From the NCBI GenBank assembly GCA_043809585.1, contig JBDROZ010000053.1, positions 1 through 64,000 of the forward strand: a DNA stretch of 64,000 nucleotides, written 5' to 3'. Below the pieces are notes generated by a model. It did no database searches. It was not told the origin of the DNA and saw nothing but the letters and a program-made list of their open reading frames with translations. The DNA comes from Candidatus Eiseniibacteriota bacterium. Its GTDB lineage: Bacteria > Orphanbacterota > Orphanbacteria > Orphanbacterales > Orphanbacteraceae. Shown here piece after piece: positions 15,453 through 24,700 of this stretch. The position numbers and the translations under genes were made by a program. Position 1 is the first letter of the stretch, and each line of letters opens with the position of its first letter.

Positions 15453-17363
15453 GTGGGCCGGATCCAGAAGAAACAGCTTGGGGAAATCCTCGTTGAAGCG
15501 GGCCTGATCGGAGAGCAGGACCTCAAAAAGTATCTCTTCGAGAAACTGACCACCGACATGAGGCTCGGCGAGTTTCTCGTCGAGAAGGGGGTCTGCACCG
15601 AGGAGGACGTGGCCCGGGCCCTTTCCACCCAGCTCGGGTACGAGTACGCCGACCCGAAGGGGATCCACGTCGAGGCGGCGGCGATCTCCGCCATTCCCGA
15701 AAAGCTCGCCCGGAAGCACGAGATGCTCCCGATCCAGATTCACATGCGCGAATTGATGGTGGTGATGGCCGATCCGACGAACGTCGCCGCCGTGGAGGAC
15801 GCCCAGTTCGTCAGCAGCTACGAGATTCGACCCCTCGTCGCTCCCCGGAGCGCGTTGCTGAAGGCGATCGACAAACACTACAGCATCGAGTCCTCGGTGG
15901 AGGAGATCGTCAAGGACATCACCGCCTCGAACGTGGAGGTGCTCGACGATTCGAAGGAGAGCTCCGTCGACCTGAAGGAGGCGCAGAAGCAGAGCCAGGC
16001 GCCTCCCATCATCCGGATGGTGAACCAGATCATCGCCACCGCCGTGGACATGGGCGCCTCCGACATCCACATCGAACCGGCCCGGGAGTCGCTCACCATC
16101 CGCTACCGGATCGACGGGCATCTCCGCAAGGAGCTGGAACTCCCCAAGTGGGTCCAGGGGGCGGTGCTCTCCCGGGCGAAGCTGATGGCCCACATGGACA
16201 TCGCCGAGAAAAGGATTCCCCAGGACGGCCGCTTCGGCGTGCGCATCGGGATCCACCGCCTCGATCTCCGGGCCTCCACGCTCCCGACGAATTTCGGCGA
16301 GAAGATCGTCATGCGCATCCTGGACAGCGAAAGCTCCCAGGTCGGCATCGAGAACCTCGGAATGGAGGAGGAGATGAAGACGAGCTTCCTCTCCATCGTC
16401 TCCCGGCCCCAGGGACTCGTGCTCGTGACCGGCCCGACGGGGAGCGGGAAGACGACGACCCTCTACTCGGCCCTCGGCCACATCAACACGGTGGAAAAGA
16501 ACATCACCACCATCGAGGACCCGATCGAATACGAGCTCGCCGGCGTCAACCAGGTGCAGATCGACGAGAAGGCGGGTCGCAACTTCGCGAACGTCCTCTC
16601 TTCCATCTTGCGGCAAGACCCCGACGTGGTGATGGTCGGCGAGATGCGGGACCTCGAGACGGCGACGATCGCCCTTCAGGCGTCGCTGACGGGGCACCTC
16701 GTCCTCTCGACCCTCCACACCAACTCGACGATCGAGACGATCACCCGGCTCCGCAATCTCGGCCTCCCGTCATACCTGATCGCGTCGGCCGTTCACGGAA
16801 TCCTGGCCCAGCGTCTCGTGCGACGGATCTGCCCGAATTGCCGGGCTCCTGCGGAGCCGGCGCCGGAGAAACTGGTCCGTCTCGGCATCCCCCCGAGCCA
16901 GGCGTCGAAACACCGTTTCTTCGAGGGGGCCGGATGCGAGCAATGCGGCAAGACGGGCTACTCGGGGCGGACCGCGATTCACGAGTTTCTCGTGTTCAGC
17001 CGCCGGATCCGGGAGGCGGTGGCGGGGGAAGGGAACGAGTCGACGATCCGGCAGCTCGCCCTCGCGGAGAAGACGAGAATGCTTCTCGCCGCGGGCCTCG
17101 AGAAACTCGAGGGAGGTTTGACGACCGTGGACGAGCTGCTCCGGGCGATCCAGGTGGACGCCGCCTCGGGCACCGCCTGCCCCAAATGCGCCCAGGTGAT
17201 CAGTCCCGAATTCGTCGCCTGCCCGGCCTGCGGCCATCGCCTGATCCACACCTGCGGCGCCTGCCGCGCCGTGGTCGACCCCGACTGGGCGCACTGCCCC
17301 TACTGCTCCGCGGAGAGAGGGGCCGCCCCCCGGATGGGGGCCGCGACCGTGAGCGTCCGGTAG
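15453..17363 (+). CDS. PilB/GspE-family ATPase with N-terminal MshEN-like domain and C-terminal double zinc ribbon
   Basis: ASDIHIEP, PQDGR, GPTGSGKTTT, TIEDPIEY, LRQDPD, TGHLVLSTLH; RLGEFLVEKG; four C-terminal CxxC. Confidence 0.92.
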   Translation: MGRIQKKQLGEILVEAGLIGEQDLKKYLFEKLTTDMRLGEFLVEKGVCTEEDVARALSTQLGYEYADPKGIHVEAAAISAIPEKLARKHEMLPIQIHMRELMVVMADPTNVAAVEDAQFVSSYEIRPLVAPRSALLKAIDKHYSIESSVEEIVKDITASNVEVLDDSKESSVDLKEAQKQSQAPPIIRMVNQIIATAVDMGASDIHIEPARESLTIRYRIDGHLRKELELPKWVQGAVLSRAKLMAHMDIAEKRIPQDGRFGVRIGIHRLDLRASTLPTNFGEKIVMRILDSESSQVGIENLGMEEEMKTSFLSIVSRPQGLVLVTGPTGSGKTTTLYSALGHINTVEKNITTIEDPIEYELAGVNQVQIDEKAGRNFANVLSSILRQDPDVVMVGEMRDLETATIALQASLTGHLVLSTLHTNSTIETITRLRNLGLPSYLIASAVHGILAQRLVRRICPNCRAPAEPAPEKLVRLGIPPSQASKHRFFEGAGCEQCGKTGYSGRTAIHEFLVFSRRIREAVAGEGNESTIRQLALAEKTRMLLAAGLEKLEGGLTTVDELLRAIQVDAASGTACPKCAQVISPEFVACPACGHRLIHTCGACRAVVDPDWAHCPYCSAERGAAPRMGAATVSVR

Positions 17364-17535: not shown

Positions 17536-18129
17536 CTACGAGCCGGCGCGCGTGTAAACCATCTCCATGGTCCGGGTCTCGGTGCCGTCCGCGGCCACGT
17601 CGTACATCTCCATCACCGCCTCGTCCTTCGAGACGGAGCGGACCACCATCTTGTAGGTCTTCGTTCCGCCGGTCATGATGTCCGGGTAGTGGCCCGTTTC
17701 TGTGATCACCGAGCAGTGGTCGGTGCACGATCCTTCGCTGGTCGTCATCAGCGTTCCCCACGTGTCGATCCAGAAGGAGGTGTGCTTGCCGGAGAGGTTG
17801 TCGAAGCCGGAGATCCCGATACCTTCGAAGGGCATGCCCATCGACATTCCGGAGAATCGCTGATCGAGAAAGCGGCCGCCGAGGACGAGGCGGAACTCGG
17901 CGGTCCCCGTCGTCTCCGCCGGGGGCTCGCCCGGCTTCATCCACATCTTCCCCGTCGCCTTCCAGGTCCCGACCATGTCCTTCATGTGGGCGTGATGAGG
18001 ACCGGGGGCCGCCACCTCCATCCACTTGGCCATCTCCGCATCGTGGTCCTCCCCGGCGAAGGGGGCCGTCCCCGTCACGAGGATCGCCAGCAGGGCGGCG
18101 CAGGTCCCGAACCGAAATGCGTGGTTCAT
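17536..18129 (-). CDS. DUF1579 family exported protein
   Basis: PGPHH..MVGTW...LGGRFL...PFEGIGISGFDN...WIDTWGT pattern; RBS aaggag before ATG 18129. Confidence 0.82.
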   Translation of the reverse strand: MNHAFRFGTCAALLAILVTGTAPFAGEDHDAEMAKWMEVAAPGPHHAHMKDMVGTWKATGKMWMKPGEPPAETTGTAEFRLVLGGRFLDQRFSGMSMGMPFEGIGISGFDNLSGKHTSFWIDTWGTLMTTSEGSCTDHCSVITETGHYPDIMTGGTKTYKMVVRSVSKDEAVMEMYDVAADGTETRTMEMVYTRAGS

Positions 18130-18257
18130 ATTCGTCTCCTTCGGTGATGTTTGCGGGAAAGGGGATCCGGTCTGAATATAGGAAGGAGGAGAGGCCCGCG
18201 CCAGGGGCGTCGGGGGCGCGCGGGGCATGAGCGGGTAACTACTTGCCGGGTTGGTCA

Positions 18258-18638
18258 TTAGCCTGGAAACGGCTGGGCCCGGACCCAGCTTTCGTCGATG
18301 GTGTGGTACACCTCGCCGGTAATCGTGAAGAGTACCGCTTCGGTGATGAAACGAACTTCGTCCACCGGCACGGGGAGGTCGAGTCCGGTGATCCGGCTCC
18401 ACTCGCCGGACACGCCGAGATGCCACGATTCCCCCGCCGGGGTCCACCAGTAGCGGCCGTCCCCGCCGACGATTCCGACGCCGATCGGGTCGTCGCTCAC
18501 CTGGGGCCTCCAATTCGCCCTTCCCGCGTCCGCGCCGGTGCTGAGCGCCACGGCCGCCCCCTCCGCACCGGAGCCCAAGAGATGAAGCACGAGCAGAACC
18601 GCGCCGAGCGCGACGATCTTCACGAATCGGCAGGGCAT
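18258..18638 (-). CDS. Small exported hypothetical protein
   Basis: RBS gggagga, hydrophobic N-terminus; no recognised family. Confidence 0.5.
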   Translation of the reverse strand: MPCRFVKIVALGAVLLVLHLLGSGAEGAAVALSTGADAGRANWRPQVSDDPIGVGIVGGDGRYWWTPAGESWHLGVSGEWSRITGLDLPVPVDEVRFITEAVLFTITGEVYHTIDESWVRAQPFPG

Positions 18639-18899
18639 GGTCCCATCCTCCCTTTTCGCGGAATGGAAATCACGTTCATCGTCTTATCGCCCCCTTCGTC
18701 GAACGCCGGCCCCGGGGGGGAACGAATCGGCCGTCAAGGGGCGCATCGGAGTCGTCGAACCGGGAGGAGGGTCTCACCGTTTGATCCACCACACAAGACG
18801 AACCTGGCCGGATGATCTGACGAAGGAAAGTGGGATCCCCTCCGGCCCCGGGCATGAGCCCTCTCCGGCGCCCCTCTCTCACGCCGCCGGTTCTTCCTC

Positions 18900-19080
18900 T
18901 AGAACCGGTTTCACAACCTCCATTCTACTGCGATCGGCTGCAAGGCCCGGCGGCTGCGTACTCGGGTAAAAACGTCCTCAATGGCCTTCTTAGGCCACCT
19001 CCGGGCGTTTTCCCCCTCGATCCTTGCCGCCGAACCTTTCGCTCGATCTCGCGACGAAGGAGGTTGTGAAACCGATTCTA
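18900..19080. repeat. Palindromic element family R1 copy D
   Basis: IR tagaaccggtttcacaacctcc / ggaggttgtgaaaccgattcta; conserved ctactgcg, tcctc...cctccgg, ctcgcgac. Confidence 0.82.
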
Positions 19081-19336
19081 CGCAGAACCGGACCCCTTTG
19101 TTTTGCGATGGCCGGCGGATCGGGCGAGAGAGAGGGGTCGCCGGACCGGCCCATCCTGTTGGACGGACTCTTCTCCGACACTTTTTGCTTCTCTAATGTA
19201 TAGGAGCCGCGAACTTGATGCGGGTCAAGTCGCGCGGTGCGTTTCCGCTTCGCCTTGTGCCCCAAATATGCTATAGTTTCGAGGGTTACAGCAGTAGCTC
19301 TCTTGCCTTCGCACCCACACCCAAGGAGGTCTACCG

Positions 19337-20380
19337 ATGCGAGTTCGTGCGGTGGTCGTGCTCGCCATCCTCGCCCTGGCCGCCGGTTCCGCCGCCGGAA
19401 ATCCGCGGTTGGTCGTGGTCGAGAATTTCACCAATACCGGCTGAGGCGGCTGTAACGCCATCAAAGTGGCGATGGACGCCATCTTTGAGGCGCATGCGGG
19501 GCAGGTTGCCCCGATTCGGCCTCATGTCAGTTGGCCCCTCCCGAGCGATCCGTTCTATCTCGCCAACACGCTCGACTCCAATGCGAGGGTGTCGTATTAC
19601 GGAGTGGGATACGTCCCCACCTTCCGCTTCGAGGGCATGTTTCTGAAGGACCCATCCAACTTCTTGACCTACGCCCAGTGGTACGCCTACGTGGAATCCA
19701 CCCTGGATAGCCTCTACAACGTACCGAGGCCCGAGTTCCGTATCAATTTCAGCCAGTACGTCGACGGCGCCTGGATTCGCACCAATTTCGACATCATCGC
19801 CGAGCAGGGCGTGAGCGGCGACTACCGGATCACGATGGCCGTGGTCGAGGATTCCGCCTACAGCGGACCAAACCTCTTCCGGTTCGTCATGCGGGATTAC
19901 GTCCCCAACGCGTACGGGATGCTGGCGACCATGACCACCGGCGACTCGCTCCACTACGAGTGGCCCTACCGGAATACCAGCGGGGCGACGGACATCACCA
20001 CCATGGTCTTCGTGCAACGGGTGTCGGACAATCAGATCCTCCAGGCGATCTCCGTGCCTCCCTTCGGCACGACCACGGGAATCGGTTCGGGCGAAGCTCC
20101 CCTCCGCGTGGTGCTCGCGCCGAACGCCCCCAACCCGTTCAACCCGGCCACGACGATCGGCTACACCCTCGACCGGGCCCGTCCGGTCCGGCTCGCCGTG
20201 TACGATCAGGCGGGCCGGCTCGTGAGCGAGCTGGTCCGGGGCGCGGGAGAACCGGGCAGCCACACGGCGGTGTGGGACGGCCGGGACCGCTTCGGACACG
20301 AGGTCGGGAGCGGCGTCTATTTCTACCGGCTCGACGCGGGGCCCCTCTCGGAGACCCGCAAAATGACATTGATCCGATGA
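19337..20380 (+). CDS. Secreted Omp28/thioredoxin-like selenoprotein (UGGC motif) with FlgD-Ig/T9SS-like domain
   Basis: RBS aaggaggt, ATG 19337, signal peptide, ENFTNTG-TGA(19442)-GGC in frame with ORF 19466-20380; downstream hairpin. Confidence 0.85.
19456..19492 (+). promoter_or_regulatory. Putative bacterial SECIS element
   Basis: cgcc-a-tcaaag-tggcg[atgga]cgcca-t-ctttga-ggcg; bulged U, G-containing loop starting 27 nt after TGA. Confidence 0.7.
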
Positions 20381-20658
20381 TAGGGAACGGCTAGTCGAGC
20401 CTTCTTTGGCCCCGGGCATCCGCCCGGGGCTTCTTCACAGGGGCCCCGAGCGAATCGGCCGGCGGCCGTGCTGACCTTGATGTTTCAAGAGACCCGCACG
20501 TCTTGCGCCGAGTCGGGGAGCCAGGCGCGCCGAAATCAAAGCTGCAGTTTTGTGGAATTGGGGCTAGTATCGGTCCGATTCCCGGCAAAGGGTCGGAATC
20601 GCCCTTCTGCCGGCCCCGATTCGACCGATGATAGGAATGGGGAACGAAACCCCTCGAG

Positions 20659-21723
20659 GTGACCCGAATGAACACCCCGACATGGATATTTCTCGGCGCC
20701 CTTGCCCTGGCTCCGCCCGGCGGGGCCCGCGCGTTCCATGACGGCGGCGTCGCGAGCTGCCACGGATGCCACATCATGCACGACAGCGAGGACGGGTACC
20801 CCGGTCCGGGGGGCTACCCGATGCTTCTCATCGCCGACACGCCGACCGAGGTCTGCCTCACCTGTCACGCCGGCGGCTATGGAAACGTCCTCGGCGACAA
20901 CCTCCTCATGCCCCCCGACGAAAAGGGCGCCGGGAACTTCGTCTTCCTTCTCGAGGACAACTTGAACGACGGTCCGAACGGGGCCACCCAGCCGATCCCG
21001 GGGCAGGCGGCGGGGCACAGCGTGATCGCCCCCTCCTACGGGCTCCAGCAGGACACGGACTGGACCTATGCCCCCGGGGGGACCTTCCCCTCGAGCCAGC
21101 TGGGTTGCACAAGCTGTCACGATCCTCACGGCGCCGACACGTTCCGTCTTCTCCGGGGCGTGGGGCCGTTGCAGGGGGGCATCTTCGATTTCGTGAACCC
21201 GGCCCCCGATGGCATCGGAATCGACATCGGCCCGACGGGAGGGGCGGAAGCCTCGAACAACCACAGCGCCTATCGATCCGGTTTCACTGCGTGGTGCGCG
21301 AACTGCCACGGCGACTATCACGCGCCCCCCGGCGATTTCGGTTTCAAGCACGACCCGGACCGCTCCTTCGGCGGAGCCTCCTCGCGCCGGTACAACGAGT
21401 ACAACGGCGACGACGACCCCGGTGGCGGGGACGTGGCGAGCGCCTATCTCCCCCTCGTCCCCTTCGAAGACACGAACATGACGACCGATAACTTCTTCGG
21501 TCCGTCGATGGTCAGCCGGGTGATGTGCCTGTCCTGCCATCGCGCCCACGCCTCGTCCGCCCCCCGGGCGGGCCGGTGGGACTTCAACGTCGACCTTCTC
21601 GATCAGGACGGCATCGCCTCCGGCTCCTGGCCGATACCGAATCCCTACGGGCCGAACCAGGGACAGCTCTGCGCCAAGTGCCATCGGCACCACGTGGCGG
21701 ACGGAGTCGGCTTCCAGGATTGA
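20659..21723 (+). CDS. Hexaheme c-type cytochrome, OmcS-like
   Basis: Six CxxCH motifs; mature N-terminus FHDGGVASCHGCHIMH; APGGTFP, CHDPHG, WCANCH, AYLPLVPFE, CLSCHRAHAS co-linear with recalled OmcS sequence. Confidence 0.88.
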   Translation: MTRMNTPTWIFLGALALAPPGGARAFHDGGVASCHGCHIMHDSEDGYPGPGGYPMLLIADTPTEVCLTCHAGGYGNVLGDNLLMPPDEKGAGNFVFLLEDNLNDGPNGATQPIPGQAAGHSVIAPSYGLQQDTDWTYAPGGTFPSSQLGCTSCHDPHGADTFRLLRGVGPLQGGIFDFVNPAPDGIGIDIGPTGGAEASNNHSAYRSGFTAWCANCHGDYHAPPGDFGFKHDPDRSFGGASSRRYNEYNGDDDPGGGDVASAYLPLVPFEDTNMTTDNFFGPSMVSRVMCLSCHRAHASSAPRAGRWDFNVDLLDQDGIASGSWPIPNPYGPNQGQLCAKCHRHHVADGVGFQD

Positions 21724-21741
21724 CCGATCCGCCGAGGCACC

Positions 21742-24700
21742 CTACCAAGCGCCCGACTGCCACATCTCGGGAACCGAGTCCGATCCGTCCCCGCCGATGT
21801 CGGAGAGGATCTCTCTCGATCGCCTCGCGTATTCCGCCGCCCGCTCCGCCGACTCTCCTTCCTCGAGCACTCGGGCGAGGTTCTCGTACGCCCGAGCGAG
21901 GCCTTGCCTGTTGCCGAGCCGCTCGAAGAGACGGACGCTCTCCCGGAAGTGCTCGGCCGCCCGCGCCCCGTCCCCGCTCTCCCCGTAGACGAGTCCGAGG
22001 TTGTTGAGGCAGGAGGCGAGGCCGTAGGTTTCGCCCGTCTTCTCGCAGATCGACCGGCATCGGGCGAGGTGCCGGATCGCGGCCTCCCATGCGCCCCGCT
22101 TTCCATGGATGACGCCGAGGTTGTTGCACGCCTGCGCCGTTCCCCACTCGTCGCCGAGGCTCTTCATCATCTTCAGGGCGACGGCGCCCATGCGGGCCGC
22201 CTCCTCCAGCCGGGACCGGTGGGCGTGGACGACGGCGAGGCCTGCGTAGATCCGCGCCACTTCGCCGGGCTCGACGCCCGGCCCGACCGCGCGAAGCCCC
22301 GTCTCGAAACTCTCCTTCGCCTCGTCGCACCGTCCCCACTTCTCGAAGACCCGGCCCCGGCGCCGGTGGAGGGCCACGATGAGCCCCGCCTCCCGGGCGC
22401 CGGCAAGGGCCCGGTCGTACGCGTCGAGCGCCATCTTGAAGTCGCCCATCCGGTAGTGAACGTCGCCGAGGTCGGCGGAAGCGGAGGCGAGGTCTTCGTC
22501 GCCGAGCCCGGGATCGCCCCCCCGGGCCAGCGTGATCGCCCGTTCCAGGTAGGCGATCGCTTCGGGGTTGGCGGAGACCCGCACCGCCCCCCGGGCGGCC
22601 CGGTTGAGATAGGCGAAGGCCCGGACGGGGACACCTCCCCTTTCGAAGTGATGGGCCAATGCGGGGGTCATCTCCTCTTTCCGGTCCGGCCATTTCCCCT
22701 CGATCGCGTTCCCCGCCCGGCGGTGAAGCTCCCGTCGTTCGCGCCGGAGGAGGCTGTTGTAGGCGACATCCGCGGTGATGGCGTGCTTGAACGTGAACCC
22801 GTCCCCTTCGCCGGCGCCGGGGGGGAGGAGGAAACCGCGGCGGCAGAGGAGATCGATCGCCTCCCCGAGGACGGGTCCGTCCCTCTCCTCGCCGGCGAGG
22901 GGGGCGAGGAGGGTGCGGGGGAAGGTGCGGCCGAGGACCGAGGCGGTCTGGAGGACCCGTTTCGTGGCGGGCGGGAGCCGGTCGATTCGGGCCATGATCA
23001 CGCCCTGAACCGTGCCGGGGAGGGTGACGGGACCGGCCTCGGACGGTGCGGGACCGCCCGACTCGGCGAGGGCGCCCGCCATCTCTTCGAGGAAGAAAGG
23101 ATTCCCTTCGGCCCCACGGAGCAGGGCGCCCCGGGTCTCGGCGGTGATGCCGGACGGGGGGAGGAGCCGATCGATCAGACGGGCGCTCTCTTCTTTCGAG
23201 AGGGGCGCGATCTCGATCGTCCGGTGCCGGTCCCCGCCCGCCGATTCGAGGCGCGCCCGTGCGTCGCCTATCCTCCCCTCGCCGGGGCGGAAGAGGAAGA
23301 TCTGGAGGACCGGTGCGGTCTCCCCGAGGGGGGCGAGGGCCTCGAGGAAACCGGCGGTGGAGGAATCCATCCAGTGGATGTCCTCCCACACGATCACGAG
23401 GGGACGGCGGGACGCCGTCCGGGCGACGACAAAGCGGAACCCCTCGAATAGTCGTTCCCGGAGGAGGTCGGCGCCGAGGTGGTCGAAACGGCCTTCCTCT
23501 TCGGCCGTCAGGGGAATGTCGAGAAGCCGGGCGAGGCAGGAACGGAGTTCCTCCCCGGAGAGGGCTCCCCCGGGCGGTTCCTCCGGGCGGAGGTCGCCGA
23601 GGAAGACCCGGAGCGCCGTCTCCCGCTCCTCCCGGGGTCCTTCCGGATCGGCGCCGAGCATCTGGGCGAGCACGCTTCTGACGGGCCATGCGCCCGTCCC
23701 CTCGCCGTAGGAGGCGCAGCGGCCGTCGACCCAGGGCGCGTCCGGGGAAGCCCGTCTCCGCGCCTCCTCGACCAGGCGGCTCTTGCCGACGCCCGCCTCC
23801 CCTTCGATCGCGACGGTCCCCCCCCGGCCCGAAGCGAGATCCTCGATCGATTCGAGAAGGGCGCCCAATTCCCGCTGGCGCCCCACGAGGGGGGAACGGT
23901 GCGCCTCCGCTTCCGTGGCCCCCCGCCGCGCGCCGAGGAGACGGAAGGCGGGAACCGGGGCCGATTTCCCCTTCACCGCCAGAGGGCCCACATCTTCCAG
24001 ATCGAAGACGCGCTTCACGAGCCCCGCCGTCGCGCCGGTCAGGAGAATGGTCCCCGGCCGGGCGGCGCTCTCCATGCGGGCCGCGAGGTTGACCGCGTCC
24101 CCCATGGCCGTGTACTCGACCCGGAGGTCCGAGCCGACCTCGCCCACCACCACGAGACCCGTGTTGATCCCGACCCGCACCTGGAAACCGGAGATCCCCC
24201 GCTCCCCTTCGAGCTTCTCGCCGTATCGCTTCGCCCCCTCGATCATGTCCGACGCGGCCCGGCAGGCCCGCTCCGGATCATCCTCGTGGGCGATCGGGGC
24301 GCCGAAGAAGGCGAGCACCGCGTCCCCCATGAGCCGGGCCAATGTCCCCTCGTGCCGGAAGACCGGTTCGATCAGGGTCTCGAGGGCGCCGTTCATGATG
24401 TCCATCACCTCTTCGGGGTCGAGATGCTCGGCGAGGGCCACCGAGCCGTGGACATCGCAGAAGAGGATCGTGATCACCCGCCGCTCTCCCGATACGCGGC
24501 CGCGGGTGGCGGCGAGCTGGTCCACGTACTCCCGGGGCATGAGGCGGCGGAGGGCGTCCTCGATCCCGGCGGGCGGGGGGGACGTCTTCGCGTTCCCCTC
24601 GACCGGCGCGCCGCAGGAGAAGCAGAACTTCGCGGAGCCGGGGAGGGAGGTCCCGCAGGAGGGACAGCCCGAGGGGGGCGCCGCACCGAGGGGGGCGCCG

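Follow-up and report, generated by a model that had tools for sequence, protein, structure and literature searches.

The window analyzed here is a stretch of 64,000 nucleotides (positions 1 to 64,000, forward strand) of contig JBDROZ010000053.1 (C53 below) from the assembly GCA_043809585.1 of a Candidatus Eiseniibacteriota bacterium. On its plus strand, at 20668..21723, lies a gene for a hexaheme cytochrome which sequence comparison identifies as a true homolog, in a small uncultured phylum, of the filament cytochrome OmcS from Geobacter sulfurreducens, and which belongs to a second-copy subfamily lacking the usual C-terminal end. The open frame 20659-21723 comprises 354 codons from a GTG (354 aa); the ATG at 20668 (351 aa) is the likelier start because a GAGGTG (20656..20661, +), a putative Shine-Dalgarno sequence, lies 6 nt ahead of it and the database record for the protein has 351 aa. 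The frame is intact with every conserved residue, and the GC content at its third codon positions (GC3) is 0.86; a minus-strand open reading frame (ORF) at 20536-21693 was taken as its antisense shadow.

The gene product starts with a Sec-type signal peptide (20668..20733, +, as for all features below) that ends in ARA and has no lipobox cysteine. Cleavage between ARA and FH was placed by sequence and alignment to Phe1 of mature OmcS rather than by a signal-peptide predictor; among the 120 near homologs (the best 120 of 2,372 homologs), 70 have an AxA ahead of the mature start. The mature chain begins FHDGGVASCHGCHIMH and contains six CxxCH motifs starting at residues 9, 41, 125, 188, 265 and 313. 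Its N-terminal segment Phe1-His16 (20734..20781), identical to OmcS at 12 of 16 residues, includes the distal His2, the heme-1 motif (20758-20772) and His16 (20779-20781), which is kept in 118/120 near homologs and 84 of the 85 family representatives. It is followed by the heme-2 motif CLTCH (20854..20868), assigned from sequence and near-homolog alignment; the invariant distal His95 within the block GHNIVA of OmcS (21016..21018; 120/120 near homologs, 85/85 representatives); the heme-3 motif CTSCH with the invariant distal His132 (21106..21129); the heme-4 motif CANCH (21295..21309), assigned from sequence and alignments; the distal His206 within the RHP block of OmcS (21349..21351; 120/120 and 82/85); and the heme-5 motif CLSCH with the invariant distal His272 (21526..21549), the heme-3 and heme-5 elements being recognized by alignment to OmcS and by conservation. 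Judging from this near-invariance, the distal set for bis-His ligation would be His2, 16, 95, 132, 206 and 272. Two extra histidines, at mature positions 177 and 196, are conserved in 120/120 and 119/120 near homologs. The heme-6 end (21658..21720) reads QGQL-CAKCH, in place of the family norm QRxL-CNKCH-x-[K/Q]D, and continues into a 12-residue low-confidence tail, the C-terminus of the protein being QGQLCAKCHRHHVADGVGFQD; several relatives have a seventh CxxCH at this place.

The similarity to OmcS exceeds what shared heme motifs would give by chance, because OmcS (6ef8_A) was the only match at E<=0.001 among 177,635 PDB sequences (E 7.8e-30) and a profile of 120 sequences retrieved it from PDB at E 1.1e-50, far ahead of the next match (9e-4). 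NCBIfam and Pfam gave only generic CXXCH domains above their cut-offs, and ESM Atlas only unnamed CXXCH clusters. The predicted fold follows that of OmcS along its full length, residues 22-342 of the model aligning with 1-407 of the OmcS chain, with 27-33% identity in the structural alignments; a homodimer prediction with four hemes scored 0.00, gave no answer and was counted neither for nor against. An earlier note on this DNA had described a compact OmcS homolog with six CxxCH motifs, a signal peptide ending ARA, eight OmcS blocks in order and a conserved His16, a view to be given up if the alignment did not extend beyond CxxCH or the distal histidines were missing. This description was borne out throughout: the alignment is significant in both searches, the distal histidines are present and near-invariant, the mature chain has 329 aa against 407 in OmcS with an OmcS fold predicted, and all eight blocks occur in 6ef8_A and align in order with the window protein (window/OmcS: GHSVIA/GHNIVA, APGGTFP/APGGTYP, CTSCHDPHG/CSSCHDPHG, AYLPLVPFE/AYLSLAPFE, LCAKCH/LCNKCH; WCANCH and CLSCHRAHAS identical). 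His16 of the window protein also aligns with His16 of OmcS, the residue that Wang et al. 2019 reportedly identified as the inter-subunit heme ligand of OmcS filaments. Being present in 84/85 representatives, His16 does not single out filament formers, and it was rejected as a marker for them. Heme 5 of OmcS receives one His ligand, out of 12 in all, from the neighbouring subunit (PMC6584659).

In common with OmcS (GSU2504; PDB 6EF8, 6NEF), the window protein has six CxxCH motifs in the same order, six distal histidines, an FH mature start with His16 and the same predicted fold. It differs in its length (329 vs 407 residues), its more acidic composition, large deletions relative to OmcS-like representatives (one behind the heme-3 block, another in the stretch from heme 5 to heme 6), and a 12-residue tail in place of the terminal CHxKD. 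In a tree built without OmcS itself, it falls in a clade of its own with compact members and shares 37-38% identity with the two representatives nearest to OmcS.

The host genome (G000) is 4.24 Mb in size, 97.5% complete and 66% GC, and its phylum comprises 10 genomes, with five from its family in the RpoC comparison. RpoC identity is 82-87% within the family, 64-70% to full-length matches from Zixibacteria, Eisenbacteria and Krumholzibacteriota and 59-60% to two Desulfobacterota, and in the RpoC tree the host lineage stands separate (support 1.0) without a resolved sister. Neither RpoC identity nor the tree placed the host in Geobacterales or Desulfobacterota; these marker-gene results thus confirm a host outside Geobacterales, as the earlier note had supposed. 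Eisenbacteria was rejected as the host phylum, since it comprises more than 150 genomes against 10 and RpoC separates the two; the nearest named RpoB (89%) is labelled 'Ca. Eisenbacteria' by NCBI. Contamination was likewise rejected as the source of C53, whose enolase is 80-82% identical to family members vs 66-67% to three other phyla and whose tetranucleotide composition ranks 7 of 82 contigs.

A Ccm locus, 28 ORFs with at least two CxxCH motifs and four OmcS-like copies (on the window, C41, C69 and, N-truncated, C45) are found in this genome. The C69 paralog, 43% identical to the window protein, is the last gene of an operon with a probable beta-barrel (no Pfam match), two lipoprotein-like genes, a peptidyl-prolyl isomerase (PPIase), a cytochrome that a frameshift divides into 34+8 hemes, and an NHL propeller. 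This operon and those of its relatives resemble, as far as published descriptions go, the omcS-companion (osc) cluster GSU2500-GSU2493, an eight-gene block linked to OmcS maturation and secretion (PMC12977616, PMC13194489), in combining a very large multiheme cytochrome and a probable beta-barrel with an NHL propeller, a PPIase and lipoprotein-like genes; a nearby barrel and propeller have been used as a criterion for likely wires (PMC13712944). Two differences from the osc arrangement are that the window gene lies outside the cluster and that a single 42-heme gene takes the place of the 26-heme and 16-heme genes of other loci. In the host, the reading frame of the large cytochrome (C69:84851-87965, L043) breaks at a run of five C into parts with 34 and 8 hemes, and nine relatives have one 42-heme ORF; the break may be an assembly error or real. 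The C45 copy (C45:9681-10559), near the C69 copy in sequence, retains four CxxCH motifs without the signal peptide and first two motifs and is probably a remnant. The C41 paralog (C41:28000-29298, L003) has an extra N-terminal CxxCH ahead of the usual start, as does its Krumholzibacteriota sister (L010). In the other family of the host phylum, an osc-like operon (L100; G009 C72:42000-61000) with NHL, lipoproteins and a 42-heme gene encodes two hexahemes that are barely OmcS-like (E 2e-4) and possibly represent a different wire subunit family. A seven-heme cytochrome of ~280 aa recurs at the edge of osc-like operons (L090-L098, L101-L114).

The window gene itself is solitary on C53, between a gene for a secreted protein with a FlgD-Ig C-terminal domain and a converging cyclase/TPR gene. 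An Rfam scan of 18000-23000 gave no match, a look-up of RNA runs listed none, and a promoter and terminator scan found 0 promoters and 1 terminator-like site, equal to chance expectation. A GspE/PilB-type secretion ATPase with MshEN and a double zinc ribbon (15453-17363, +) lies 3 kb upstream of the cytochrome gene.

Among the matches listed, those at E<=1e-30 fall in 33/121 Krumholzibacteriota, 22/121 Zixibacteria and 8/151 Eisenbacteria genomes, in phylum samples centred on known positives; in the host phylum, strong matches are confined to G000 and G005, and 7 of the 10 genomes have no match. Five records titled 'uncultured Ignavibacteria(les)' (L013, L023, L026, L028, L033) sit in the Zixibacteria sample, and the two tested join Zixibacteria by RpoC. 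Osc-like neighbours occur at 23 of 31 homologous GTDB loci within the sequence examined around each. For the 8 solitary loci (8 genomes), the operon lipoprotein was found elsewhere in 7 of the genomes and not found in G045.

It is the C-terminal end that divides this family. OmcS ends LCNKCHAKD, and CHx[K/Q]D is kept in 70 of the 85 representatives and absent from 12 (3 unparsable); the QRxLCNKCHx[K/Q]D end, which the window protein lacks, is defined as a feature of OmcS proper in this analysis and not in print. Every member of the window clade (support 0.98) is without CHx[K/Q]D, as are 108/120 near homologs. The window protein groups with the second-copy partners of nine Krumholzibacteriota loci; in six of these partners, motif 6 is closely followed by a seventh CxxCH. 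Of the 33 positive Krumholzibacteriota genomes, 10 have a window-like gene directly 3' of a C69-like gene, and the nine of these loci that were fetched in full (the tenth, L006, being cut by a contig start) all show the C69 gene order with a 42-heme gene. A less biased test is provided by 20 genomes with a single match from the Krumholzibacteriota, Zixibacteria and Eisenbacteria samples: 17 have a standard end beside osc-like genes, one is cut at a contig end, and two (G309 and G111) have a lone seven-heme window-type gene. A standard copy accompanies the window-type copy in 25 of 28 genomes (G047 left out; the genomes are related and not independent events), the exceptions being G005, G309 and G111, in which a search for the operon lipoprotein gave no match and two control genomes matched. 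In none of the operons examined is the window type the sole hexaheme. The copy in G005, a genome of the host family (L002/L099, C46), is a lone seven-heme window-type gene interrupted in frame by a TAG where the heme-4 block has its W. Two Desulfobacterota loci carry a comparable pair of genes that belongs to another clade; at one of the two, L035, the gene without the K/Q-D end lies directly 3' of the propeller gene.

What appears to be new is the second-copy subfamily and its rebuilt heme-6 end, not the occurrence of the OmcS family outside Geobacter. No description of the subfamily was found in the literature searched; the survey and supplements of Shen et al. 2025, outside that search, may list these phyla. 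OmcS homologs or OmcS-like genes have been reported in Geoalkalibacter and Anaeromyxobacter (PMC10954620), Desulfurivibrionaceae (PMC12545173), Thermodesulfovibrionia (PMC8478452) and, by FeGenie, Krumholzibacteria (10.1101/2020.09.22.307553). DA_402 of Desulfurivibrio alkaliphilus, an OmcS-like cytochrome outside Geobacter that is predicted to polymerise, also has a seventh CxxCH (PMC12545173). The extra hexaheme paralogs of G. sulfurreducens, likened here from their published description, are comparable in that an additional copy lies inside the export operon or, as omcJ, elsewhere in the genome (PMC12977616). The earlier note had also deduced extracellular electron transfer in the host lineage. 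The genome is indeed equipped for it, with Ccm genes, the 28 multiheme ORFs and the osc-like operon on C69, but the lineage is less surprising because OmcS-like genes had already been reported in Krumholzibacteria, Desulfurivibrionaceae, Anaeromyxobacter and Thermodesulfovibrionia.

It is proposed, with a probability of about 0.45, that the window protein serves an OmcS-type wire system as an accessory subunit, possibly a terminal one, and that it is exported together with the C69 subunit. Hemes are arranged in the order of their motifs, which makes the altered region the face that would be expected to take up the next subunit; an accessory or terminal role is therefore the best reading. The protein would be exported by Sec and receive its hemes from the host Ccm system, whose genes are present, and should then fold around a six-heme stack with 12 His ligands, in keeping with the predicted fold and the conserved ligands. 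It may next pass through the barrel/lipoprotein/PPIase/propeller machine encoded in trans at C69, as the position of its relatives inside such operons suggests. By analogy with OmcS, the intact Phe1-His16 end would dock onto the heme-5/6 end of a standard subunit. The changed heme-6 end might then take further subunits poorly or differently and so end, space or diversify the filament, and minerals or partner cells may meet an exit heme on this subunit; this last step, with its extension, is the weakest.

Several observations weigh against this proposal. In G005, G309 and G111 the sole copy is of the seven-heme window type, and the search for the operon lipoprotein found none there (for G309 and G111 no completeness value was given), so the window type can occur without the cluster, an exception qualified for G005 by its in-frame TAG. 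Any role of the K/Q-D end in the OmcS interface is conjectural, and P0339, a close relative of OmcS, also lacks this end. Since the window gene is solitary, its co-expression with the C69 subunit is likewise conjectural. The system may be decaying, because the 42-heme gene is frameshifted in a C run and the C45 paralog lacks its N-terminal third. Finally, some studies are reported to have found OmcS itself dispensable when Fe(III) oxide is reduced (PMC13194489).

According to the earlier note, the protein may polymerise into conductive filaments; such a homopolymer could be an alternative wire, expressed under other conditions. In its favour, the full set of 12 His ligands is preserved along with the first 16 residues of the mature chain, the predicted fold matches OmcS over its whole length, His16, should it work as it does in OmcS, would depend on a heme of the adjoining subunit, and a solitary gene could have its own regulation. 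We nevertheless consider this unlikely, given the altered heme-6 end with its frequent seventh heme in relatives, the absence of any examined export operon with the window type as sole hexaheme and the description in PMC12977616 of only one of the four G. sulfurreducens paralogs as a known wire former. It is doubtful to the same degree that the protein relays electrons outside the wire, either as a periplasmic or surface cytochrome (monomeric or in short oligomers) or as an assembly helper comparable to OmcT, OmcJ or OscC. The three genomes with a window-type copy and no operon gene found would fit such a role, and OmcT, OmcJ and GSU2501 are given in PMC12977616 as having no known filament. 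His177 and His196 could be ligands within one chain, but they also occur in the standard-ended C69 and C41 paralogs and so do not mark the window type; the strict conservation of His16 and the N-terminal block, and the continued linkage of relatives to the export operon, likewise speak against such a role. That the gene is a relic displaced from its operon in a decaying system, to which the frameshifted 42-heme gene, the truncated C45 paralog, the TAG-interrupted G005 homolog and the seven host-phylum genomes without a match could be ascribed, is very improbable, for its frame is intact with every conserved residue at a GC3 of 0.86, a full-length homolog elsewhere is 83% identical (P0004), and the frameshift, being situated in a homopolymer run, may have arisen in the assembly.

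The host has further multiheme genes. Two cytochromes with 6 and 16 CxxCH motifs (L044:3708-6452 on C52 and L045:3439-8271 on C58) end in a FlgD-Ig or type IX secretion system (T9SS)-like sorting domain, and elsewhere in the genome there are 156 ORFs with a similar C-terminal domain as well as PorV matches above the cut-off, which suggests a possible T9SS-like export route for the two cytochromes. On C52, a run of genes for a Rieske protein, cytochrome b, several multiheme cytochromes and possibly a barrel (L044:8799-18242) resembles an inner-to-outer membrane electron conduit. C36:46289-50980 (L048) holds adjoining ORFs with 20 and at least 36 hemes that reach the contig end, the 20-heme protein having no Pfam match.

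Telling wire formers from other OmcS-like proteins is still a problem for annotation (PMC12977616), and the same paper cautions that polymerisation is known for only one of four paralogs in G. sulfurreducens. The presence or absence of CHx[K/Q]D offers a simple sequence marker that splits operon-head from second copies in three candidate phyla, and the second-copy type offers a testable idea on wire ending and electron release. The frequency of the family in uncultured lineages suggests that extracellular electron transfer has been under-counted there. Unless filaments are demonstrated, the window gene counts as an extra paralog of a known family. A bolder and quite speculative possibility is that the OmcS-type wires of Krumholzibacteriota, Zixibacteria, Eisenbacteria and the host lineage are heteropolymers, with a KD-ended shaft (C69 type), a tip with an intact His16 end and a rebuilt, often seven-heme, heme-6 end (window type), and perhaps, at the base, a subunit bearing one more heme at its N-terminus (C41 type). 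If true, such end pieces would give the wire a pilus-like architecture of major and minor subunits that sets its length and exit point.
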